Origin: a virus
Virus record (IMG/VR): IMGVR_UViG_3300021405_000012
Span: 3,855-67,854 of that record
Strand: one strand, 5' to 3'
DNA: 64,000 bases
Under the pieces are notes generated by a model. It made no database searches and was not told the DNA's origin. It saw nothing but the letters and a program-made list of their open reading frames with translations. Below, in pieces: positions 5,135 through 18,146 of this stretch. How positions within the stretch are numbered: the first letter of the stretch is position 1; the number at the start of each line of letters is the position of its first letter. The translations under genes were made by a program, and so were the position numbers.

Positions 5135-6760
5135 CTAGCGGTTTTTCCGCCCGCGCATGCGCTGCCGCGCCGTCCCGCCGTAGCTCTGCGGCTGCTTTGC
5201 CTGCTGCAATTCCCGCTGCATCTTGTCGCGGTAGAGCACCGCCGAGGTGGGGTCTTTCTTCCAGAGTTCCGCCAGGTCCTGCTCCATCTCCGCCTGTCTG
5301 GGCTTTTTGGCGGTGCGCTCGGTGGCCCAGCTGTAGTAGCCGTAGCGGCACATATCGTAAAAATCATCAAGTTCGTCGCCGGAGATTTTGTCGACGTCGC
5401 CTTCCTTGTCGGGATCCTTTTTGCGGGTTTGCAGGGCTTCGATGGTCTTCACGCAGTTGCGGCAGATTTTGAAGTCGCCGTCTTTCAGTCCGGAGTACAT
5501 CTTCATGGCTCCGCCGACGCGATCGTTTCGGGCCTTCGAGAAGCCCAGCCCGTACACTCCCAGAATCTCGTTCATCTGGTGGGCCAGGTTGAAACTCATC
5601 CCGCCGGCGCGGCCATGTTCCGACCAGGCATCGGGCGAGAGGTACCACGGCATCCAGCGGCGTTCGGGCACACTCAAGCCGCTGCCACCATCGGTCACCC
5701 AGCGTTCGACGATGGCGCCGGCGAAACCTTTGGCAGTCTTGTCGCGGAAGTCATGGCCGCCCATCTCGTCGACCATGTAGGCGACACCTTGCGGACACTC
5801 CGCGGTTTCAGGCGCGTGTTTGAACAGGCCCGCGGCTGGCGCAGAAATCGAGAAGCCGTAATCGCATCCCGGCCACTGCGGCCACCACCACTCCTCGCCA
5901 ATGTCCTTGCGATCCACGGTCATCGAGGCATAGTCCCAGATGTCAAAGAACTGGCCTTCCGTGGCTTCCCAGCATCCGGCGAGAAGCGCTTTCGCGAGCG
6001 CCGGCGACTGCATGTAGAGCTTGGCCACATAGTCCTGCCCCAACTTGTCGTGACCATAAACGCTGCCCAGGATGTAGGCGACGGAGAGCTTGTACTTGCC
6101 GTCGGGGCCTTCGAGCGGGCGGTCGTACTCCGGCCAGCGCCCATTCCACTGCAAAACTTTTTGCGGCGGGGCTTTCAGGGGTTCGCAGTGCGGACACACT
6201 CCGCCCATGAAGAGTTTCTTGTGCCATTTCGCGCCGATGTTGCCGGGGTTGGTGGTGAAGATGGCGCGGATTTTGAGGCTGGGATCGGGGGAGCGGCTGC
6301 GAGTCAGAATGGTGCGCGGAAACTTCTCTTCCCATTGCGTCGATTCATCGAAGGCGGCGGCGGAGATTTCCTTGCCCCAGTTGTTTTCGAGGTCAGCCTG
6401 GTTCTTCAGCTGGCGAAAGCGGAAGGCGGCCCCCGAGGGCCATACCCAGGTTGTGGTCAAACCTTTGTGGCGATCGACGGAACGCGCCCCGGTTTGGGGG
6501 AAGAGTTCGCCGGCAATGGTCATCGCCTGCTCCATGGCGTCATAGGTGCGGCGGAAAAAGTACGACGACATGCGCGGACCGTCGCGCTCCTGGATGAGCG
6601 AGACCAGGGCGGAGGAACTTTTCAGGCTCCCAGCCGCCCCGCCGAATAGCAGCAGATCAGCTTCGCTATCGAGTGCGTCCTCCTGGGCCTGATAGGCAGG
6701 CCACCAGCGCAAGGCCCGCCGGACTGGGTCGGGCAGCACCTGGACATCACTTGCTTGCAT
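5135..6760 (-). CDS. terL: Terminase large subunit
   Basis: Walker A FGGAAGSLKS, Walker B AAFDES, motif III TTNPG, nuclease acidic residues (CDYG, DDFYD..RY). Confidence 0.92.
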   Translation of the reverse strand: MQASDVQVLPDPVRRALRWWPAYQAQEDALDSEADLLLFGGAAGSLKSSSALVSLIQERDGPRMSSYFFRRTYDAMEQAMTIAGELFPQTGARSVDRHKGLTTTWVWPSGAAFRFRQLKNQADLENNWGKEISAAAFDESTQWEEKFPRTILTRSRSPDPSLKIRAIFTTNPGNIGAKWHKKLFMGGVCPHCEPLKAPPQKVLQWNGRWPEYDRPLEGPDGKYKLSVAYILGSVYGHDKLGQDYVAKLYMQSPALAKALLAGCWEATEGQFFDIWDYASMTVDRKDIGEEWWWPQWPGCDYGFSISAPAAGLFKHAPETAECPQGVAYMVDEMGGHDFRDKTAKGFAGAIVERWVTDGGSGLSVPERRWMPWYLSPDAWSEHGRAGGMSFNLAHQMNEILGVYGLGFSKARNDRVGGAMKMYSGLKDGDFKICRNCVKTIEALQTRKKDPDKEGDVDKISGDELDDFYDMCRYGYYSWATERTAKKPRQAEMEQDLAELWKKDPTSAVLYRDKMQRELQQAKQPQSYGGTARQRMRGRKNR

Positions 6761-7610: not shown

Positions 7611-10600
7611 TCACTGCGCGGCGGCCTCTGCCTTCTCAGTCTCCGCCCGTTCGCCCTTCTCCAGCAAGTTCATGCGCTTCTGGCGAACCTCGCGATGCAG
7701 CTCCTCCATTGCTTTCTTGTCACCGTCGCGCTTCGCGGCCTCGTACACGCGCATGATTTCCGAGTAGCTGAAGCCGTGAACCGTATCCTGCAACGGAGTC
7801 AGCCGGGCGCGTTCCCGGAGCTGCTTTTCCTGGGTGAGCGTGATCTGGTGTTTGGCGCGGGCCTCGGATAGAGGCTTCGAATCGCCCTTGCGCAGTGCGT
7901 CGAGAATCTCCCGGCGCCGGCTGTAGACTTGCTGCTCTTCGGGATCAACTGCCTCAGTGCCGACTTTCGTCATGGCGATATCCGCGGCGACACGCTCGGC
8001 CGGAGTCTTCACGCTCTTCAGTCCCAACTGCTGTAGCCAGAATTTCTTTCTTTGCTCGGCGCTTGACCAGGCCCGTTCGGCTTGCCCGATCTGGCCCATT
8101 TCGCCGATGACGTAGTGGCCGAGTTCGTCGCGCTGCGTCGACCAGGTCGCGTGCGGATCGACAATGTTTCGCCCGGAATACGACTCGCGGTTGTTCAGCA
8201 GGTCCATGCCACCCTTGAGCAGCGGGCTCGGCATCAGCACGCGCTGGGCGGTGGCGCCGACCCCGGCTTCCCGGCGGGCCATCTTGTCGACGGCTTCCAT
8301 GAAGCCGACCAAGCCGAAACGCTTCACCGCCAGATGCGCATCGTGGCCGAGTTCTTTGGCTTTGTCGTCGAGCCAAGGCAGGATGCCGTACATCAGCAGT
8401 GCCAGCATGGCCCACTGCGACCAGGCAGTACCAACTTCGCCCGCTTTGGAGTTGTCGCCGGTGGGCTCTTTCAGTCCCAGCGCCGCCTTGCCCATTTCGA
8501 AGGGTGCTTTAAGCAGGTGGTAGTGCCAAGGGCCGAAGATGAACACTTTCGGGCTGCGGAAGGCCTTCGAGAGCATAGTGCTGTCGGCGATGCGTGTGGG
8601 CACGCGGTAGTCGGCCAATATGCGGACCGTGTCCGCCAGCGCATCCTCGAACGACATACCCTTTGCCTGCTTCTCATAGGCCGACTGCAACAGGAAGAAA
8701 TCGCTGGAATGCCACGCCACGAAGTTCGAGAGCGTCTTCAGCGGGCCCAGGATGTAGGCGTACTTGGCCTCCGTGAGTCCGATCGCGTCGGCGATGCGCA
8801 TGGCCCACGGTTCTTTCTTGCCCAATCCCTCGGCCAGCCGTTCGTAGAAGAGCTTGGTGACATCCTGCGTCAGTTCGCGGTGGGATTGCAGCGCGGCGCC
8901 GGCATCGAGCGCAGCCTTGAAATCGTCGTTCTTGGTGAGCACCGCATGCAGCGCTTTCGAGCTGGTGCGGTACATGCGCACGTAGTTGGTGGGGAAAAAC
9001 CCGTGCAGGCCTTTCTCGACCAGCCAGTCCATGCCGACGTTGCCGGCGTGCATGAGAGGGTTGAGCAACATCACTAGGCGCATGAATTTGCCGACCTGGT
9101 CGAGCACGTTCGCCTCTCCACCCTTCAGGCTGTCGGCGTAGCGATCAAGGACCTCGGACGTCCGGGGCTCGAAGTAGTAGCCATGGAACTGCGGGAGCTG
9201 CGTGGACTTCCAGCCCTTGGGCGGATTGCCGCTGCCTTTCCAGGCAATGTCTTTGAATTCCGGCGAGGCTTTCAGGCCTTCGATGAAGTGCATCGCATCG
9301 AGCGCCGATTCCAACTGGATATTGGAAACGAGCAGAGACGCCAGCGCCGAATGATAATATTCCATGTCGGTGTTGTCCTCGATCTCGCGCGTGGTCGCCT
9401 GTACCACCTTCCAGTCGTAGCCGTCCGGCCCTTCGACGATCTTGCCCTTATCGTAGAACGCGGAATTTGGCTGGCCTTCAGGGAAGGTCTCATTCTCTTC
9501 GTCGGTTCGGCCGTTTGCGTTCTTGATCTCCCCGAGTTCGGTGGGTTCGCCTTCCTGCCACATGGTCGCGTGGCCGCCTTTGATTGAGATGACGCGCCGG
9601 TCCCCGGAATCATTCTCGATGGCCATCATGGTGCGGGTCTTCGTCTGGGGCGCGGATTTCGAGAGGCCTTTCCCGCCCACACTGGTGCGAATCTTTTGCG
9701 CGATGCGATCGAGCGCGCCGCCTTTGCCCTTCACCGTGCGGTGGACGTAGTTCTCAAGGGGCACGCCGCCGGCCGTCAGTTCGGTGTAGGCCTTCTCGTT
9801 GCGCTCCGCGATCGGCAGCATGTCATCGAAGCGGTTCTCCTGGGCGTCGGTGAGTTCGTCGCTTTCCTGGTCCTCGAGGTGGTGGTAGATGGCTTCGTCA
9901 TCGGCCTTGGTCAGCCCGGCTTTCTTGGCTTCGAGGAAGGCATCGCGGGCGCGCAGTTTGCGGGCATCTTTGCGGGTTTCGAGGGTTTCGAGCTGGTGCT
10001 CGATGTCGCGGGCGATCTTGGTAGCGGCTTTGACGTCTGTCAAGTAAGACTTTACAGCGCCGGCGGCGTCGACGGCCGCTTCGCCGAGCTTCGAGAGGTT
10101 GGCTTCTCCCGACTCGCCGGTCAGCAGGTTCTCTGCCTTCGGTGCGGGTGCTTCCTTCGGTGCGAACGATTTCGCTTCTTCGGCCATGCTGGGAGAGGCG
10201 TAGAGCGTGGTTTTCTTCAGCAGCTCCTCGATGACCTGTGTCTCCTTCCCCTTGGGGATAGCCGCCCGCATCGTGTTCTGCTGCGAAACAAAATCGCCGG
10301 TTAGGTCGGTGATGCCGTGGTCCAGGAAGTACTTGCCGCCGCGCGCCTTGGCTCTCGGCGTTACGATCGCGAGCTTTCCGGCATCGTTGACCACGCGCAC
10401 GTTTCCATCGCGGCTGGCGATGCCCATGTCCTCGATGCGCGGGTTGACGGTCTTGCGCAGGAACTTCAGCGCGTGCGCGGCGTCCCGCAGCCGGTAATCG
10501 CCTTTGGTGTTCTTGCTGAAGTCGAACTTCTTAGGCAGCAGAATGCCCTGCTCAGTTGTGCCGTCGGCCTTGGTGAAGTTGATGATCGTGCCGCGCGTGT

Positions 10601-13600
10601 CGGTCAGTTCGCCATAGGCTGCCAGCAGATTGCCGGTGATGATCTTGGCAGTCTCGCGGGTCTCGGCTTTCGTGCCGCGGAAAATGTCCTCCGGTTTGTC
10701 ATAGAGTTTCCGTTCCTCGATGCGCTGCACCTGCGTGGCTGGAACGGCGAGTGTCCGCAGGGAGCCGTTCGTCGCCAACGTGACGTTGATTTTACTGAGA
10801 GCGAACGGATTGCCGGTGCCTTTGTGGGTGCTGCGGATATTGACAACGGCGGCGTTATAGAGATCGCCATTGATTTCGACGCGCCAGGTTGAGCCGATCT
10901 CGTGGTCGCGGATGAAGTCCCGCGCCGTGCGCGCAACGATTTCAGATTGCCCCACCGTGGGGCTCGCTGGGTCGAGGGTCTGTTTGTAGTACGTGAGCTC
11001 GCCGTCTAGTTTCTCGATCAGCTCTTTTGAGTGCGCGGATGGCGTCTTGCCGTCGAGGTGCTCTTTGATGCTGGCGGTGACTTCATCGGGAGCCAGCGGT
11101 TTGCCCTGAGATTTGATCGAGTACTCCCCGTAGGTTGCGGCTTCGCCAAAGGGTGAAGCGGGATTGGTCGCCGCCACCAGTTCGTAGCCGCGGGTTTCCT
11201 TGGCGTCGTAATCGAAGGTCTTCGGCTCGAGCTCGTTCTGGTTGGTTGAATCGAGGTAAGCGATATAGTCGTTGTACTGCTGCTCGACCTCGTTATAGAA
11301 CGCCTCTTGCACTTTGACCGGAAGGATCGCCAACCGCCCAGTTGCCTTGCGGGCGATGTCCTCAGTCGGGCTGCCGTCCTCGTTGAGCGGAGTGACGTGC
11401 AGCATGCTCGCGAGTTCCGCGTTGTCTCCGAGATAGTTTCCGACAATCTGATCGCCGTACTTGTTGAGCATGTCCGCGGCTTTTACCGAGGTCGCGGATT
11501 CTGTGTTGCTCGAAGTGTTCGCGTTCAGCGACTTCATTTTCTTCGACAGCAGGGCCGTCGGGCGCTTCTCTGCCGGCAGGTCGGCGTTGAGGATGGTGTA
11601 TCCGGGTAGCCGCACTTGGCCGGTGCGGTTGATTCGCCCCAGCATCTGCATGAAGATGTTGATGTCCTGCGCCGGCTGGGCAACGATCATATGGCGCGGC
11701 TTCTGGTCTTTGAACTTCTCGGAAGCGTGGGCGCTGATGCCCGTCGAGCCAGCCACATTCAGCAGAAGGGAATCCAGGCGGCCATCGTTGAACCGGCGAA
11801 TGGTCTCGACTTTATCGTTCTGCTCCTTCAGCGGGACGTGCGACAGCTTCGGCTGCTCTGGGTTGCTGTAGTCCACGGACAGATTGCGGCCGGTGATTTC
11901 AGCCACGGTGTAGCCCGCATCCTCGATGCGCTGGCGGATCCAGTCGATCGGTGACACCGGAAGATCAATCTTCAGCTTGTCGATGGTCTTCTGGGCGTCA
12001 TCATAGGCATGCCGGGTCACGGGATCCAGTTCGTCGAGGGGAACGTACTTCTTGGTTTTGTTGCCCATGGCGTCGGTGATCTGCAAGTACCGGCTGCGAT
12101 CAAGGGCGCGCGAGAGCACGTTGCGGTAGTCGAAGTCTTCAAGCCGATCTCCGGGCTGTAATCCCTTGTCGCCAACGTAGGCCGAGAGGAATGAACCCAT
12201 CGTGTTATCGACGGCAATGACTGGCTTTTCGCCGCGCTTGATTGACGCGATCGCATCATCGGCTGCGGTGTTGGCCTTGATGCCCAGCAGCATCTGGCGC
12301 ACGAAGTTGTGAACCACCGAGGAGAACTCGGTGTGGTGTACCGACTTGCCGGCCTCGTTTCCACCGCCAACGATTTTGTTGGCCTTGTTCTCTGCGACAG
12401 CCGCCTTCTGTGCCTCTCCGACGTAGGTCGTATGGAAGGACTTGTCGGCGTCCACGATCGCGCGCAGGGCGCTGGTGGCACCGTCGGCAATCTTGGTGTG
12501 TTCGGCCCGGTGCTCGGTATCCACCTTGGTCGCCATGCTGATGCCGTCGTAGGAACGCTCCCGGCGGAACATCTGGCCAGCCTTCACCAGATTGTTCGAG
12601 ACCACGGTTTGCAGGGGCAGGCCGCCGTCTTTCATGGCCTGCACCAGTGTGCCGCTGTCGCCGATGGCTTCGCCCATGTCCGTCTTGAAATAAAGCGGCA
12701 TGTTGTCGGGGCGCTTTGCGTAGGTGGCCGAGAGGTAGGTCACGCCTTTGGCGTCGGCCAGCAGGCCACGAAGGAAGTCGCCGGTGTTCGACGAACCGCC
12801 GGCGTTGTGGGATTCGTCCAGAACAAAGATCGCTTTCCGCGCCAGCGACATAAGCATTCCCTGCTGGGCGTTGTGCACATTGACCTGCGAGTAGGTCAGA
12901 AACACCGCGTTGCGGCCGGCGGGCAGCGTCCCAGTGTTGCGAATCTGCTCTATCAGCTTTCGATGATTGGGCTTGTTGGCGAAGGCGCGGCTGCCGTCCG
13001 GGCGCGTGATCCACTCGTCTGAATTCACAATGAAGGGATTCACGTCATCCGTTCCGATGTCCGAGAGATCGCCGTACATATCGGTGAACAGGGACGGCGC
13101 TTTGGTGATGAAGACGGGGATATCGCCTTTCTTGGCGGCCCAGCGGATGATGGCCGCAGCCTGGCGTCCTTTGCCGATGCCGGTCTGATCGGCAATGACG
13201 ATGGCTTTGCCCTGCTGGATTTCGTGGATAGCTGCGGCAACCGAGTCAACCTGCAACCCCATAAAAGCGTTGTGCAGGTCGTCGACCGAGGGATAGCCAA
13301 GTTCCTTCGCCACGTACTTGTCGAGGTTGCCGACTTCATCTTCGAGGACGTTCATCGCCTGCTCCAGAGGCGATTTCATGTTTACCGGGATCAGGACGTT
13401 GGCGTCTTTTTTCTCCGAGGCCGGGGTGTAGGGAGTTTGGAAGTCGTTCGACTTCGGACTTATTGCGCTAGGGCTTCCGTTATCTGGTCGAGAGTTGGCA
13501 ACTCGCTCGGGTCGAGACTCAGGCTTGTGCCCTTTTTCCAGTCGATCCGAGTGAGCAATGTCTGCATCTGGCCGCAGGCTAGGATCTGAGACGGCCACTC

Positions 13601-16600
13601 TTCCGTCTCGTCCTGCATTGCGATCTGATACAGGTCCGACAGATTCTCCGGATCGCTCGACAGCACCTGCTGCGCCTGCTCCGGGTCGTCCTCGATCAGT
13701 TTTCTCAGGCGCTGCTCCAGGAGTGTTTCGTACAGGCTGCGATTCATCGGCTGGCTGCCGCTGTAGGGAACTGTCAGCCCCTCGCTCCCGTGCAGGTCGG
13801 GGCTCGGCCGCCATGATTTCACTGAACTGCTCATACACCTGATCCCATGACTCTAGTCGTTGGATGCTTTCAACCGGAGGGGCGATTGCAGAAGATGTTT
13901 GCCTTCCGCCGATCGCGATAACCCGAACTGGCCACGCCGCACCCTGGCGCCCATAGAGTTTTCCCTCGATCTCGAAATGCCCACTCACATCATAGTGCGA
14001 ATAGAGCCAATTTAGGAAGATATTGTCATCGGTGCTTTGGCCGCCGGGGGTGAACTTGTTGGCTCCGAGGATCAGGGTAGCCTTCCCGTCGTCCTTCATG
14101 GCGTCAAGGGCTCGAGCTGCAATCAGGTGGTCGATCTGGCCGATCTTGTAGCCGTCTACACGTTCCTTCGTCGCTTTGCCCTGGGCGTCTTTCACCGAGC
14201 CGAACGGCGGGTTGGCCACAACCGCGTCGTATGCCTTACCCAGAGTGGCCTTATGTGCTGGGCTCCACGCCTCTGCGGCATCCCGTTGGGTGACTTCCTG
14301 GTATCCCTGCTTTTGCAGTGCAGCCATGCGCTCCGGGTTGAGCTCGTTCACCCGCGTCTTCTTGGGGTTCGCTGCGATGGTGAGCATGCCGTTGCCGGCA
14401 GTCGGCTCGTAGAGACTGCTGTTCTTATCGACTCCCGCCAATTTGTCCGCGAGGTAGGCCAGCGGCGCGGGTGTGCTGTAGGCCTGGTTCTCGATGCTGG
14501 TCGAGGTACGGATGTTCAGGTTTGGCTGGGAATTGTAGAGATCGACCAGTTTGTCGAAGGTCTCGCGTGTGTTCTCACCTGCGTCAACGATATCGCGCGC
14601 GCGCTGGACCACGGCAACTTCGAGTGCTTCCTGCGCCTGCTTCATTCGAGCCGGGTCCGCAGGCTTGCCGTCGAAGGCGTCTACGAGCTTTTTCAGCGCT
14701 GGGTTGTCTTTCGGCATTTCACCGGCGGCGATCTTCTCCAGCAGGTGTTCGGTGAGAGCGGCGGCGCCTTTGCTGGTTTTGCCTTTCTGGATGTCGGCCC
14801 AGCCGGGTTTCTTCGGCTCTTCTGCGTGCGGCCGCGCTTCGTAGCTGCCCTCCGGGGTGGGAACGATGTCGGCCTTCTTGACGGTGAATTTCGGCTTCTC
14901 CTCGCCTTTCTTAAGCCCATGCGTCACGAAGCTGGGCAGCACGTACTTGGCGGGCTTCTCTCCCGCGAGCTTGACCACCTCCTGCTTGCCCTGCCGATCG
15001 GTGATCGCGATTTCACTAACTGTGAACTGTTTACCCTTGGTCAACTCCATGCCGACGTGCCTCTCTGCTCGGTCGGGGCGGACGTAGGCTATAGTTGCGT
15101 GAGGTCGGTACTCGAAGTCGGGCTTTTTGAAATCGCCATGCTTCTCCAGTTCCCCATTGATCCGGTGCAACTCCGGCGCCTCAATCGGTGCGATGATGAC
15201 GGCGGCGCCGTCGCTGTGCTCGCTGGGCGGGAACTTGTCAGTTTTCCCGAGCGTAGCCTCGAACGGCGCGAGGCCTGCCAGATACTTCTTGACGCCTTCG
15301 ACGTCGTCGCCCTTGATCCCGTAGCGTACCGTTACATGATTTCCGCCCTCTCCGATATCTTTGCCGTCTCCAGCGAGGTCCGCTTTCGAGATGCGGGCCC
15401 GAGCGGCTTCTAGAGCTTTGGCAGCTTCGCTCTCTTTGGGAATGTTGGCCTGGGTTGATCCGAATTTGTAGAGCGTCTCAGGTTTGTCGGCTTCACCGCG
15501 GTAAAGTCGGACTGTTCCTGCCCCCCGCGGTACTGCCGGCTTCTCCGCCCGCACCTTCTGCCCAACGTCCGGGCCCGTCTCAATCGAGTGATCGAAGCCG
15601 TGCTGCGTGATGTTCCGCTTTGCCGGGAAGACGGCACCTTTGGCTGGCTCGGAACTTCCGCCCTTGAGGCCCATGCTCTTGGTGACGATCCCGCCCGGCT
15701 CCGGCTTTTCTCCCAACTCCATTTCGAGGTTGGTCGAGTGCGTCACCACCAGTGGCCGCTTGCCTGCCTTCGCCATGCCCTCGATTTCGGCGAGCGCTTC
15801 GTCCTGGCGCTCCTTGGCCTGGTTATAGGATTCCCCGCCTTTCGGCACTTCGTCAGGATGGGCTTTGTAGTGATCCCGGATGTGCTGGATGTCGGAAACC
15901 TGCTTGCCTTCGGTTTCCGGCATACGCTGCGGCCGCAACCGTTCGTCGGCTTCGACGGGTACGCCCAGAGCTTTGCCGACAATGTCGGCGGTCTCTTTCG
16001 CGCGCGGCAAGTCTGATGTCACGATGGCAGTGGGTGGATTCCCTTTCAGGTCCGCCGCCATCTTCTGGGCAGCGGCTTTGCCACGCTCATCAAGACTCTC
16101 ATCCGACCAACCCGCGACAGTTTCTCTTCCTCCGGCTTGGTCGAGTTTGGTGGCGCCATGACGCCCGAATATGATCTCTCCGGCCTTGATGTCAGTCTTG
16201 GCGGTTTGCTCAACTTGCTTCTCGCCGGCGGCGGAGAGTGTCGCGTGGTGACGCTTGGGGATGGTGGTAGTCGATTTCGGCTCGGACATCCAGGGCAGCT
16301 GGGTAGGCTCGTCGAATTTCACCCGCACCGTGCGCAGCCCGCCGATCAGGCCATCGTGCTTGATTTCGGCTTCGGTGTTGCCGGCGGCGCCGATTTGGAT
16401 CCGGCTGCCCTTTGCGAAGCTTCCAGCAACTCCTTGGCCCGGGGCAGCAGCTCCAGATACTTCTCCGCCACCTGTTCGAGTGTCAATGTTTCGCTCAGGC
16501 AGGTTGGTTCCGGCAGCGGCGGCGGTGGATCCGGCAGCAGCAGTCGAAACGTCCTCGCGCTGATTAGCTCGATCGTGCTCGTCTGCTGCGAGTACCGCTG

Positions 16601-18146
16601 GCTTCGAAGTTTCACTGGGTATCTCCTCTTCGCCCACGATTGTAGGTGCGACATCCACATTCGTGGACGCTGGGATTGGCTCTTCGGCTAGAATTGCAGG
16701 CTGAGCTTGCCCGAGCTCGGCGGCACGCCCGCTACGGGTTTGCCGTGACCCCCTGGTTTCCTTGGGGGCAGCCGCCGGTTTGGTAGCTGCCCCCGATTTG
16801 CCCGTCTCCCCAGAGTTCCGGGCAAATTCCTTCTCCTGGCGCGCAACTTCGTCGTTGATGATCGATTGGGCGACCGAGGCGGCTTGTTTCTCATTTTCGA
16901 TAATGTGTAACTGGCCGTCTGGCCCAACGATTTTCCCCTGTTGCAGCAACACTTTAGACAGGGTTTCATGGGCTTCCATGACGCCTTGGGCGCGCAGGTT
17001 CTCCGGCAGCTTGACCAGCAGTTTGGCGATTCCAGAGACCGTATCCGAGGAAATGTGGCCCTGCTGGATGTCCTGGGGCAGAGGTGGGCCTTGCGGGGTT
17101 GGCTCCGGTTCTACAGGGGGCATGCCACGCACCACGCGGGCGGCTGCGGTGCGTTTGGCGGCGGCGGCGACCAGAGCGCTGGCTCCGTTGTCGGGCGGCC
17201 CTGCAGGGGCGGTTTGCTGGCCTTCGATGGTGGGAGGCTCCAAACCGGGACCCGCAGGCCGATTTCCCCGAGGGATGACAGTCTCACCCCGAAACGACCC
17301 TACTCCACCGCGCAGGCGGATTTCTTCAGGAGTGACCGCGATGCCAGCGCCAGCACGGCCATTGGCAACGGTTGCAGCCGCCCGAGTCCCTTCCGGACCG
17401 CTTTCCATGGAGAACTTGGGCCGCAGCCGGTTGGCGTCTGCGGCGAAGTAGGCGCTCAGCCCGGTCTTGGTGGCAATCTCCGAGCGTTCCATGGGGGTGA
17501 GTTCATCCCAGTGGTCGTGGAGCTGCTTGGCTCCGTCGATCGCGCCCGCGCCGAGCATGGTGCGGAAACCGCCGCTGATGATTTTTTGCAGGATGGGTCG
17601 GGCGGCCGCGCTCGCGAAGAAAGGCCAGTTGCGCACATCGCCGACCGTGCCGCCAGCGAATTCGCCGACACCCTTGATGGCTCCCATGGTCTTCGGGGCA
17701 TAAAACTCCATCGCTTTGACCGCATCGCCTTGGGGCGCTCCCGGTTTCAGTTCTGGCCGGAGAATCGGTTGCAACACAACTGAAGCCGCGCCCTCGGCAA
17801 TCTCGCCGCCAGCCTTCGCGGTGCGCGCAGCTGCGCGTTCGAACGGCTGCACCAGTGTGCGGTTCGCCAGATCCAGCGCGGGCACCGCCGCCTGCGGCAC
17901 CATTTCGCCGAGACGTTCTTCGGGCGTGGGCTGGTTCGGAGCGGCTTGATAGCTGGAACCGGTGCGCTGGGCGGGGGGCAGAACTTCGGGGTGAAGGATG
18001 CTGGGACGGGCTGGGGCTGCGGCTACAGCGGGCGGAATCGGCTCTTCGCCGACTATCTGGAACTTCGGGGCGGAGGAAGGGCGGGGTTGAGCGCTGGGCG
18101 CAGGGATGGGCTCTTCGCCAACAATCTGATAGGTGGGGTCGGGCAC
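7611..18146 (-). CDS. Giant polyvalent virion/ejection protein (DarB-like): His phosphatase, 2H phosphoesterase, amino-methyltransferase, Strawberry-notch SF2 helicase, helical C-terminal region
   Basis: RHG...TSDLPRA..TA...VVTHS; HVT...HAT; YSTPAPLA, EPTAGNG, NPPF; DQTGIGKGRQ, DESH, SAT, QMLGRINRTGQ; last of the ejection-type genes. Confidence 0.88.
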   Translation of the reverse strand: MPDPTYQIVGEEPIPAPSAQPRPSSAPKFQIVGEEPIPPAVAAAPARPSILHPEVLPPAQRTGSSYQAAPNQPTPEERLGEMVPQAAVPALDLANRTLVQPFERAAARTAKAGGEIAEGAASVVLQPILRPELKPGAPQGDAVKAMEFYAPKTMGAIKGVGEFAGGTVGDVRNWPFFASAAARPILQKIISGGFRTMLGAGAIDGAKQLHDHWDELTPMERSEIATKTGLSAYFAADANRLRPKFSMESGPEGTRAAATVANGRAGAGIAVTPEEIRLRGGVGSFRGETVIPRGNRPAGPGLEPPTIEGQQTAPAGPPDNGASALVAAAAKRTAAARVVRGMPPVEPEPTPQGPPLPQDIQQGHISSDTVSGIAKLLVKLPENLRAQGVMEAHETLSKVLLQQGKIVGPDGQLHIIENEKQAASVAQSIINDEVARQEKEFARNSGETGKSGAATKPAAAPKETRGSRQTRSGRAAELGQAQPAILAEEPIPASTNVDVAPTIVGEEEIPSETSKPAVLAADEHDRANQREDVSTAAAGSTAAAAGTNLPERNIDTRTGGGEVSGAAAPGQGVAGSFAKGSRIQIGAAGNTEAEIKHDGLIGGLRTVRVKFDEPTQLPWMSEPKSTTTIPKRHHATLSAAGEKQVEQTAKTDIKAGEIIFGRHGATKLDQAGGRETVAGWSDESLDERGKAAAQKMAADLKGNPPTAIVTSDLPRAKETADIVGKALGVPVEADERLRPQRMPETEGKQVSDIQHIRDHYKAHPDEVPKGGESYNQAKERQDEALAEIEGMAKAGKRPLVVTHSTNLEMELGEKPEPGGIVTKSMGLKGGSSEPAKGAVFPAKRNITQHGFDHSIETGPDVGQKVRAEKPAVPRGAGTVRLYRGEADKPETLYKFGSTQANIPKESEAAKALEAARARISKADLAGDGKDIGEGGNHVTVRYGIKGDDVEGVKKYLAGLAPFEATLGKTDKFPPSEHSDGAAVIIAPIEAPELHRINGELEKHGDFKKPDFEYRPHATIAYVRPDRAERHVGMELTKGKQFTVSEIAITDRQGKQEVVKLAGEKPAKYVLPSFVTHGLKKGEEKPKFTVKKADIVPTPEGSYEARPHAEEPKKPGWADIQKGKTSKGAAALTEHLLEKIAAGEMPKDNPALKKLVDAFDGKPADPARMKQAQEALEVAVVQRARDIVDAGENTRETFDKLVDLYNSQPNLNIRTSTSIENQAYSTPAPLAYLADKLAGVDKNSSLYEPTAGNGMLTIAANPKKTRVNELNPERMAALQKQGYQEVTQRDAAEAWSPAHKATLGKAYDAVVANPPFGSVKDAQGKATKERVDGYKIGQIDHLIAARALDAMKDDGKATLILGANKFTPGGQSTDDNIFLNWLYSHYDVSGHFEIEGKLYGRQGAAWPVRVIAIGGRQTSSAIAPPVESIQRLESWDQVYEQFSEIMAAEPRPARERGADSSLQRQPADESQPVRNTPGAAPEKTDRGRPGAGAAGAVERSGESVGPVSDRNAGRDGRVAVSDPSLRPDADIAHSDRLEKGHKPESRPERVANSRPDNGSPSAISPKSNDFQTPYTPASEKKDANVLIPVNMKSPLEQAMNVLEDEVGNLDKYVAKELGYPSVDDLHNAFMGLQVDSVAAAIHEIQQGKAIVIADQTGIGKGRQAAAIIRWAAKKGDIPVFITKAPSLFTDMYGDLSDIGTDDVNPFIVNSDEWITRPDGSRAFANKPNHRKLIEQIRNTGTLPAGRNAVFLTYSQVNVHNAQQGMLMSLARKAIFVLDESHNAGGSSNTGDFLRGLLADAKGVTYLSATYAKRPDNMPLYFKTDMGEAIGDSGTLVQAMKDGGLPLQTVVSNNLVKAGQMFRRERSYDGISMATKVDTEHRAEHTKIADGATSALRAIVDADKSFHTTYVGEAQKAAVAENKANKIVGGGNEAGKSVHHTEFSSVVHNFVRQMLLGIKANTAADDAIASIKRGEKPVIAVDNTMGSFLSAYVGDKGLQPGDRLEDFDYRNVLSRALDRSRYLQITDAMGNKTKKYVPLDELDPVTRHAYDDAQKTIDKLKIDLPVSPIDWIRQRIEDAGYTVAEITGRNLSVDYSNPEQPKLSHVPLKEQNDKVETIRRFNDGRLDSLLLNVAGSTGISAHASEKFKDQKPRHMIVAQPAQDINIFMQMLGRINRTGQVRLPGYTILNADLPAEKRPTALLSKKMKSLNANTSSNTESATSVKAADMLNKYGDQIVGNYLGDNAELASMLHVTPLNEDGSPTEDIARKATGRLAILPVKVQEAFYNEVEQQYNDYIAYLDSTNQNELEPKTFDYDAKETRGYELVAATNPASPFGEAATYGEYSIKSQGKPLAPDEVTASIKEHLDGKTPSAHSKELIEKLDGELTYYKQTLDPASPTVGQSEIVARTARDFIRDHEIGSTWRVEINGDLYNAAVVNIRSTHKGTGNPFALSKINVTLATNGSLRTLAVPATQVQRIEERKLYDKPEDIFRGTKAETRETAKIITGNLLAAYGELTDTRGTIINFTKADGTTEQGILLPKKFDFSKNTKGDYRLRDAAHALKFLRKTVNPRIEDMGIASRDGNVRVVNDAGKLAIVTPRAKARGGKYFLDHGITDLTGDFVSQQNTMRAAIPKGKETQVIEELLKKTTLYASPSMAEEAKSFAPKEAPAPKAENLLTGESGEANLSKLGEAAVDAAGAVKSYLTDVKAATKIARDIEHQLETLETRKDARKLRARDAFLEAKKAGLTKADDEAIYHHLEDQESDELTDAQENRFDDMLPIAERNEKAYTELTAGGVPLENYVHRTVKGKGGALDRIAQKIRTSVGGKGLSKSAPQTKTRTMMAIENDSGDRRVISIKGGHATMWQEGEPTELGEIKNANGRTDEENETFPEGQPNSAFYDKGKIVEGPDGYDWKVVQATTREIEDNTDMEYYHSALASLLVSNIQLESALDAMHFIEGLKASPEFKDIAWKGSGNPPKGWKSTQLPQFHGYYFEPRTSEVLDRYADSLKGGEANVLDQVGKFMRLVMLLNPLMHAGNVGMDWLVEKGLHGFFPTNYVRMYRTSSKALHAVLTKNDDFKAALDAGAALQSHRELTQDVTKLFYERLAEGLGKKEPWAMRIADAIGLTEAKYAYILGPLKTLSNFVAWHSSDFFLLQSAYEKQAKGMSFEDALADTVRILADYRVPTRIADSTMLSKAFRSPKVFIFGPWHYHLLKAPFEMGKAALGLKEPTGDNSKAGEVGTAWSQWAMLALLMYGILPWLDDKAKELGHDAHLAVKRFGLVGFMEAVDKMARREAGVGATAQRVLMPSPLLKGGMDLLNNRESYSGRNIVDPHATWSTQRDELGHYVIGEMGQIGQAERAWSSAEQRKKFWLQQLGLKSVKTPAERVAADIAMTKVGTEAVDPEEQQVYSRRREILDALRKGDSKPLSEARAKHQITLTQEKQLRERARLTPLQDTVHGFSYSEIMRVYEAAKRDGDKKAMEELHREVRQKRMNLLEKGERAETEKAEAAAQ
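13460..13747 (-). CDS. Nested acidic helical protein in the +1 frame within the giant gene (start could be 13834)
   Basis: MNRSLYETLLEQRLRKLIEDDPEQAQQ...; codons end mostly in G/C in this frame while the giant frame switches to GGA/CGA/CCT/GCA. Confidence 0.65.
   Translation of the reverse strand: MNRSLYETLLEQRLRKLIEDDPEQAQQVLSSDPENLSDLYQIAMQDETEEWPSQILACGQMQTLLTRIDWKKGTSLSLDPSELPTLDQITEALAQ
16346..16615 (-). CDS. Second nested protein in the +1 frame within the giant gene
   Basis: GAGGAG-N7-GTG start; G/C-ending codons in the nested frame; amphipathic helix LTLEQVAEKYLELLPRAKELLE. Confidence 0.5.
   Translation of the reverse strand: MKLRSQRYSQQTSTIELISARTFRLLLPDPPPPLPEPTCLSETLTLEQVAEKYLELLPRAKELLEASQRAAGSKSAPPATPKPKSSTMA

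Follow-up and report, generated by a model that had tools for sequence, protein, structure and literature searches.

A predicted, conserved gene nested out of frame in the methylase-helicase linker of a DarB-like giant phage protein

A 64,000-nt stretch of the virus record IMGVR_UViG_3300021405_000012 (67,854 bp), hereafter the window, very probably carries a genuine protein-coding gene that lies entirely within another gene on the same strand. The outer gene, at 7611..18146 on the minus strand, is a 10,536-nt open reading frame (ORF) for a multidomain 'polyvalent' phage protein of 3511 amino acids. The inner one, at 13460..13834 on the minus strand, occupies the +1 frame, consists of 124 codons plus TAA and specifies an acidic alpha/beta protein (P0002). 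It is placed between the regions encoding an Eco57I methylase domain and a Strawberry-notch/SNF2-type helicase, as the initial annotation of this DNA had proposed and as we confirm here. The sequences indicate that this region is dual coding, with the inner frame read from a start codon of its own, and that it is not a frameshift product, an artefact or a homing insert. In the linker of a DarB-like giant phage protein they thus point to a new protein family, encoded by a real and conserved nested gene.

Since (18146-13834) mod 3 equals 1, the nested ORF lies in the +1 frame of the giant gene, and base composition changes frame along with it. Over the entire giant gene, the guanine-plus-cytosine (GC) content at the first, second and third positions of giant-frame codons (GC1/2/3) is.64/.45/.74; in segments across 13467-13826 it is.77-.79/.63/.36-.40. 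Read in the +1 frame, the latter values become.63/.36-.40/.77-.79, so that the genome-typical pattern has moved into the +1 frame. A second computation gave giant-frame values of.77/.60/.42 in the overlap and.64/.42/.72 and.60/.43/.79 in its two flanks. Mean values were.77/.65/.42 in the overlap and.63/.44/.77 and.60/.42/.78 in the flanks for 26 GC-rich loci, and.63/.61/.35,.56/.39/.43 and.53/.38/.41, respectively, for 17 AT-rich loci. The high GC1 and GC2 of the overlap arise in part because the linker is rich in Gly, Ala, Pro and Arg. The frame-wise values bear out the contrast in codon endings that the initial annotation had described, and the giant-frame segment is indeed rich in R/G/P/S, the low-complexity character it had been assigned. 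A second dip in giant-frame GC3 (.48-.54) is found at ~16350-16800, where the giant protein is Ala/Gly/Pro/Glu-rich. Two +1-frame ORFs on the minus strand, at 16346-16660 (104 amino acids) and 16688-16969 (93 amino acids), were considered as a second nested gene and rejected, their products being R/S/P/T-rich and resembling off-frame junk; as they show, the GC pattern alone can mislead.

Comparison with relatives is decisive where the window on its own is not. The methylase-linker-helicase region matched one IMG/VR contig at 55% identity; the first relative has a +1 ORF at the matching place, 38% identical over 103 residues (E 6e-14) and with a shared end point. Relatives were then drawn from an alignment search with this region, taking the best 80 of 259 viral-contig relatives and the best 80 of 111 relatives from bacterial genomes and metagenome-assembled genomes (MAGs). 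A profile of the nested protein was built from 52 ORFs and run, in 164 related stretches of DNA, on every open segment of at least 45 codons in all six frames. At first 88 of the 164 stretches were matched and, once the profile had been iterated, 95; each match shares the strand of the giant gene and is in the +1 frame relative to it, and among the 164 stretches no match fell in any other frame or strand. Matches occur in 80 of the 120 non-duplicate loci that have both catalytic motifs. Twelve of the 40 unmatched loci have a junction about 100 amino acids shorter and no +1 ORF, a few lack a +1 ORF despite a junction of normal length, and many contain other protein-like, ATG-started +1 ORFs of 90-150 codons. 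AT-rich relatives keep the ORF as well: it spans 131 codons in L065 (GC.37) and 130 codons in L017 (GC.43, stop density.069). Stops in the +1 frame of homologues, which the initial annotation had named as counter-evidence, were looked for, and the homologues keep this frame open.

A two-sequence profile matched 167 proteins at E<=1e-3 (92 at <=1e-10) among 1.84 billion representatives; most are 115-135 amino acids long and begin at the same Met. The window's exact nested product is recorded from two ENA contigs of 688 and 588 nt. By tblastn, the methylase-linker-helicase region matched three records of a phage collection at E<=1e-10, none of them P1 or Bcep22-like. The nested protein alone had no tblastn match among phages and plasmids; against viral contigs, P0002 alone gave no confirmed match and the related proteins P0068 and P0051 gave none. 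One named GenBank relative with the nested ORF, Bacteroides phage BS-TP4, is annotated there with the giant coding sequence only. The expectation that standard annotation would miss such a gene therefore holds for that record; it does not hold for short metagenome contigs, on which gene callers did call the ORF. The giant-gene flanks of BS-TP4 (L002) and of a scaffold of Phocaeicola massiliensis DSM 17679 (L120) are nearly identical (branch lengths 0/.003), which suggests that the latter genome contains a prophage of the BS-TP4 type.

Substitution patterns place amino-acid constraint on the nested frame. Averaged over all pairs of the 52 relatives, nucleotide identity at the three codon positions (.388/.444/.386) is uninformative because it is saturated, and counts from close pairs were used. 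Across 40 close pairs, nested codon positions 1/2/3 hold 1584/1206/2194 differences; the position with most differences is the nested wobble, which coincides with position 1 of the giant codon. The flanks show the reverse, with the giant third position most variable (6 pairs). In the pair L019/L020, for example, differences at giant positions 1/2/3 are 6/5/39 and 15/6/66 in the two flanks and 34/15/15 in the overlap. Fourteen phylogenetically independent pairs supplied 265 isolated single differences in the overlap, of which 147 (55.5%) are silent in the nested frame only, compared with 25.2% expected; 50 (18.9%, expected 29.0%) are silent in the giant frame only, 60 (22.6%, expected 45.2%) change both frames and 8 change neither. 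Over the same nucleotide columns, amino-acid identity is.41 in the nested frame versus.28 in the giant frame, at a flank identity of.6-.7. Natural variants from other soil runs preserve the dual-frame arrangement, and those in two other runs number 8/4/4 at nested positions 3/1/2, as counted from the variant table. The claim of the initial annotation that selection acts on the nested frame is accordingly upheld by both the close-pair counts and the substitution classes of the 14 pairs.

Both frames, moreover, are kept open. Synonymous shuffles of the giant frame introduce a mean of 1.97 stops into the nested frame, which stays open in only 1.85% of 2000 shuffles for the window (.0185; median.0455). 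When the nested ORF is shuffled synonymously, the giant frame acquires 1.8 stops on average, and the fraction that stays open is.018 for the window and.118 at the median. Shuffling either frame thus usually closes the other, and yet both are open in 52 of 52 loci. The giant frame is stop-free between the methylase and helicase motifs in all loci having both, except L145 and L151. Taken together, the sequences argue for true dual coding, a read-through linker together with a nested gene, in which purifying selection on amino acids acts on the nested frame and the giant frame only has to stay open.

The nested frame has its own conserved ATG, usually accompanied by a Shine-Dalgarno sequence. In the window this codon (13832..13834, minus strand) is formed where the last methylase helix ends, by the TAT-G of a giant-frame Tyr-Glu in the conserved VYEQF. 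All 52 relatives have ATG at the aligned start, made each time from a giant codon ending in AT followed by G: the clade of the window has TAT GAG (Tyr-Glu), another clade AAT G.. (Asn-Glu/Gly). An A/T-ending giant codon is used at this point even in GC-rich genomes. Of the 52 relatives, 33 have a Shine-Dalgarno core 4-11 nt upstream, versus 229 of 4480 (5.1%) other ATGs in the same loci, and one clade has AAGGAG, from Lys-Glu, even at 37-45% GC. Three Bacteroidota rows are without a Shine-Dalgarno sequence, as expected for Bacteroidota. In the window, a weak ribosome-binding region at 13835..13846 (minus strand), GGGATCAGGTGT, contains GGGA and AGGT, which lie 8 nt and 2 nt, respectively, upstream of the ATG. 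In the window, the +1 frame has been open for only 6 codons when this ATG is reached, and 16 of the 52 relatives have a stop codon immediately 5' of it. A promoter scan of 13300-14400 returned 0 sites; with no promoter-like site upstream, we infer that the nested gene is translated by internal initiation on the mRNA of the giant gene. A 198-nt contig from a soil metatranscriptome (13720-13917) is 100% identical to the window and covers the nested start codon. Parts of the stretch are present in three soil DNA runs.

The two products of the overlap are predicted to differ sharply in structure. An AlphaFold2 model of the nested protein, built with 58 relatives, has a mean predicted local distance difference test (pLDDT) score of 92.7 and a predicted template-modelling (pTM) score of.83, and packs a two-stranded sheet (residues 5-9 and 103-107) on six helices. 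Met1, Trp8 and Pro10 are invariant in the 58 aligned relatives, which supports the 124-residue form among the lengths of 95-124 residues first proposed. The product has a net charge of -11 and an isoelectric point (pI) of 4.28 (medians of -9 and 4.5 across the 52 relatives) and is mostly helical in the model, in line with the acidic helical protein that had been anticipated. Its composition across relatives is globular (Leu 13.8%, Trp 2.3%). Read in the giant frame, the overlap contains 19.9% Gly, 0% Trp and 0% Cys across relatives, and the corresponding linker in the window (13452..13799, minus strand; giant residues ~1450-1565) is disordered, with a pLDDT of 23-32 and no secondary structure; in the modelled region it spans residues 268-383, with the well-modelled lobes of methylase and helicase on either side.

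Searches for known relatives of the nested protein were negative. P0002 had no Pfam, PHROG, PADLOC or NCBIfam match, and six relatives had no PHROG match. Foldseek against the PDB found nothing for the model at E<=1e-3, a VIA wide search reached a best Z of 3.2, and BFVD gave no match. No known DNA mimic appeared among these Foldseek PDB, VIA or BFVD results, an absence that does not exclude that family. A CSTF2_hinge match of P0005 (20.9 bits against a cut-off of 27) was sub-threshold and was disregarded, as was the best hit of a PDB profile search, a splicing factor at E.018; the best ESM Atlas score,.80 for DUF6553, is at noise level. Judged from the model and these searches, the product would be an acidic alpha/beta protein of ~14 kDa whose family and fold are not yet described.

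The nested ORF follows the descent of its host gene. We inferred a maximum-likelihood host tree from 117 giant-flank rows with the linker taken out, scoring as 'orf' class any profile-negative row with an ATG-started +1 ORF of at least 85 codons. A +1 ORF is present in 101 of the 117 rows (78 profile matches and 23 others); the 16 rows without one are a single 15-row Bacteroidota clade (support 100) and the long-branch Acinetobacter phage L003. Presence and absence require 2 changes on this tree, against a mean of 15.3 when shuffled, and none of 500 shuffles was that low. The nested-protein tree recovers the three major giant-gene clades with 4 changes (minimum 2), the exceptions being long branches, and the window is sister to L004 in both trees. 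Nested and flank identities are correlated (Spearman.67, 1081 pairs), and in L019/L020 nucleotide identity is.84 in the overlap and about.85 in the flanks. These results show that nested and giant genes have diverged together in phages and prophages from several bacterial phyla.

Copies of the nested protein are also found outside the giant gene. Two Burkholderiales chromosomes (L172 and L174) have free-standing copies that begin at the same Met. The copy in L172, at 1483-1851, is a 122-residue homologue with an HNH endonuclease gene on one side and a DUF3987 gene on the other; the locus is without methylase or helicase, and its giant-equivalent frame retains VYEQY...NEFQAIYD. Because these remnants of the giant linker persist, the copy may be a relic or decay product of a giant gene. 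Other copies are fused: in P0051 the domain follows Sel1/TPR repeats; in P0149 (WP_068629310.1, Variovorax sp. PAMC 28711) it is N-terminal to a module of ~160-200 residues that stands alone in other Burkholderiales genomes; and P0094, a Rhodoferax MAG protein, and P0039 have other sequence attached to it. Against metagenome contigs, P0051 found a Sel1-repeat relative only.

The clade without the nested ORF gives a view of the same junction in other states. There the methylase-helicase junction is short, holds an in-frame domain, as in the Bacteroidota locus L107 (2239-2682, MutS domain I, Pfam E 2.7e-17), or is a gene boundary. The junction thus seems to accommodate different modules. In L145 and L151, both Bacteroidales loci of this clade, one giant-frame stop lies between the methylase and helicase motifs, and the two enzymes appear to be encoded there by separate, adjacent genes. 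In overprinted regions, disordered frames tend to be the younger ones. As the nested frame is folded and constrained and the giant frame disordered and nearly neutral, the small gene is likely the older reading. The giant ORF probably came to read through it as methylase and helicase fused, and this read-through in another frame would have created the disordered tether between the two enzymes.

Several points weigh against a nested gene at 13460..13834 or narrow the evidence for it. The length of the +1 ORF is unremarkable in a gene of 61% GC with a +1 stop density of.026, +1 stretches of 188 and 127 codons are open elsewhere within the same 4.9 kb, and these two features of the window, ORF length and GC pattern, would be inconclusive on their own. 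Its ribosome-binding site fails a strict GGAG/AGGA/GAGG test, and the one 198-nt contig from an RNA library, the only hint of expression, may be DNA carry-over. The pair counts rest on an alignment guided by the nested protein, and the flank control covers 6 of the 14 pairs. The 95 profile matches include the 52 training rows and also three duplicate loci, and since the rows are phylogenetically related, counts over loci and pairs overstate independence. Of the 23 'orf' rows not recognised by the profile, three (L043, L044 and L053) resemble off-frame junk, and 12 short 'orf'-class proteins aligned to the main family by hhalign weakly (probability 64%, E 6.6e-5, 32 columns). Finally, the protein can occur apart from the giant gene, as the free-standing copies and the fusions P0051 and P0149 demonstrate, and the lack of any family, fold or defence-system match counts against the functional part of our reading.

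Could the pattern arise with no second protein at all, as a by-product of composition, of nucleic-acid structure or of assembly errors in the form of two compensating frameshifts? Long off-frame ORFs are numerous in GC-rich genes, and a Gly/Arg/Pro-rich linker by itself raises GC1 and GC2. However, the ORF persists at GC.37-.45, the substitution classes reveal purifying selection on the +1 frame, the predicted fold is confident, 52 of 52 independent assemblies have both frames open and the +1 ORF bounded by stops, and soil-run variants keep the arrangement, so that we regard this explanation as extremely improbable. Two-product genes that use frameshifting are common in phages, and a programmed +1 shift, by which ribosomes would leave the giant frame after the methylase and yield an N-terminus-to-methylase product with a folded acidic tail, would fit both the weak ribosome-binding site of the window and a +1 ORF that starts exactly where the last methylase helix ends. 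It is nonetheless very unlikely: the stop directly before the ATG in 16 relatives, the late opening of the frame and the invariant ATG argue against such a product, as do the enrichment of Shine-Dalgarno cores and the common Met of the free-standing copies, and the 24 nt upstream hold no slippery motif common to the relatives and differ between clades. We give similarly little credence to a selfish, homing-type insertion read through in frame. Such an element has a parallel in print, an out-of-frame ORF in an in-frame loop of a phage methylase gene, in the part of that article drawn on here (PMC11855218), and would match both the junction that is ~100 amino acids shorter in relatives without the ORF and the free-standing copy adjoining an HNH endonuclease gene. 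The nested proteins, on the other hand, match no Pfam, NCBIfam or PHROG domain, whether of a nuclease or of another kind, their divergence equals that of the flanks in close pairs such as L019/L020, and the two changes on the host tree together with the congruent nested tree argue against a homing element.

If the nested gene is real, as we consider very probable, its function has still to be weighed between a role tied to the enzymes around it and one independent of them. The strict co-divergence with the methylase-helicase pair suggests the former, and we tentatively propose that the protein is an accessory subunit of this pair, translated from the same message and acting, for instance, as a regulator, an inhibitor or a factor in assembly; the cognate inhibitor or chaperone suggested in the initial annotation, which would hold methylase and helicase in check while virions assemble, may be one such role. 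The mild acidity, the free-standing copies and the fusions leave room for an independent, for example anti-defence, role, in which an anti-restriction factor such as a DNA mimic or a binder of defence proteins was parked in a tolerant linker. Consistently acidic relatives, the copies in L172 and L174, the attachment to unrelated domains in P0051 and P0149, and a host gene that falls within the DarB-like antirestriction theme, as set out in the main text of PMC5512222, all speak for it. Set against these are the co-divergence across phyla, the giant-linker remnants by which L172 may be a decay product, and the lack of a match to any known inhibitor in fold searches. Classical DNA mimics are, besides, far more strongly charged than the nested protein. 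On balance an independent role seems unlikely. The accessory reading can be taken one step further, to a dedicated partner (a brake or an assembly or packaging factor) whose gene once lay between separate methylase and helicase genes and was overprinted by their fusion, the arrangement then being kept in phages of Pseudomonadota, Bacteroidota, Cyanobacteriota, Verrucomicrobiota and others; this fuller scenario is possible, though we hold it to be rather doubtful.

The surroundings of the nested gene are those of a polyvalent phage protein. According to Pfam, giant residues 1236-1373 (14028..14441, minus strand) form the Eco57I adenine methylase core with an NPPFG motif; residues 1634-1874 (12525..13247, minus strand) form the first ATPase lobe of the helicase (AAA_34/ResIII, DQTGIGKGR motif); and residues 2080-2243 (11418..11909, minus strand) form its Strawberry-notch-type C-terminal domain (Helicase_C_4). 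A single polypeptide thus joins an Eco57I adenine methylase to a following Strawberry-notch/SNF2-type ATPase, the arrangement that defines a DarB-like dyad. A histidine phosphatase (residues 658-807) and a 2H/2'-5' RNA ligase-like phosphoesterase domain (residues 931-1054), both found with Pfam, sit upstream of the methylase, and the ~1250 C-terminal residues are without a Pfam match. The window also encodes an integrase at 1108-2295 and a terminase large subunit at 5135-6760.

Phage genes embedded within larger genes are known from the Rz/Rz1 spanin genes of lambda and from the embedded genes of phiX174. As with Rz/Rz1, the gene described here is complete, uses a start of its own and is contained in a larger gene that it overlaps in the +1 frame on the same strand, and both products are thought to come from one message. 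Unlike in Rz/Rz1, the host gene encodes a 3511-residue multidomain enzyme, the overlap is restricted to a disordered inter-domain linker, and the nested product is a predicted soluble acidic protein, not a lipoprotein. The closest published architecture appears to be the in-frame 'ShiLan' insertion with an HNH endonuclease encoded out of frame in actinophage DNA methylase genes, to the extent that it is described in the part of the article used here (Arsenault, Gosselin and Gogarten 2025, PMC11855218). In both cases a methylase-containing phage gene reads the segment as a loop or linker while the segment's real gene would lie in another frame. The present protein, however, has no nuclease domain, its vertical inheritance over a deep tree shows no sign of homing, and its gene sits after the methylase domain, whereas ShiLan lies inside it.

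Iyer et al. 2017 (PMC5512222) described, in polyvalent proteins, a dyad of methylase and SWI2/SNF2 helicase whose archetype is P1 DarB. The window resembles that dyad, as the main text presents it, in the order of adenine methylase and Strawberry-notch/SNF2-type ATPase, in the further effector-like domains and in coming from a phage with terminase and integrase. The words 'overlapping' and 'frameshift' are absent from the main text of PMC5512222, and no nested gene is described there. More broadly, no description of the nested gene was found in the full-text literature, supplements apart, or in that reference paper's main text. In phage JC1, which is Bcep22-like, the DarB-like gp69 is virion-associated by mass spectrometry, according to the part of PMC9144972 cited here; JC1 and the Bcep22-like phages lie outside the tblastn matches to the present methylase-linker-helicase region. 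The same part of PMC9144972 lists Hdf, DarA, DdrA, DdrB and Ulx as Dar accessory proteins of P1. Small proteins needed beside a giant methylase-helicase virion protein are the type of role we propose for the nested protein; the Dar accessory proteins differ, as listed there, in being encoded by separate genes. They did not appear in our family and fold searches, in which no comparison by name was made.

In phages or bacteria, deeply conserved genes of more than 100 codons that lie wholly inside another gene on the same strand have seldom been documented, and routine annotation omits them; for the present one the evidence is unusually clean. With it, the DarB-like methylase-helicase module, believed to shield injected phage DNA, would gain an uncharacterised, confidently foldable protein family without a known fold relative, as a candidate regulator or co-factor. 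Were the nested gene indeed a dedicated partner overprinted by the fusion of its neighbours, it would exemplify gene fusion by overprinting of an intervening gene, with three functions tied together as an inseparable, co-expressed unit. By the evidence above, what looks like a 'meaningless' disordered linker in a giant enzyme can be the shadow of another gene, which may be relevant to the low-complexity linkers of polyvalent proteins at large.

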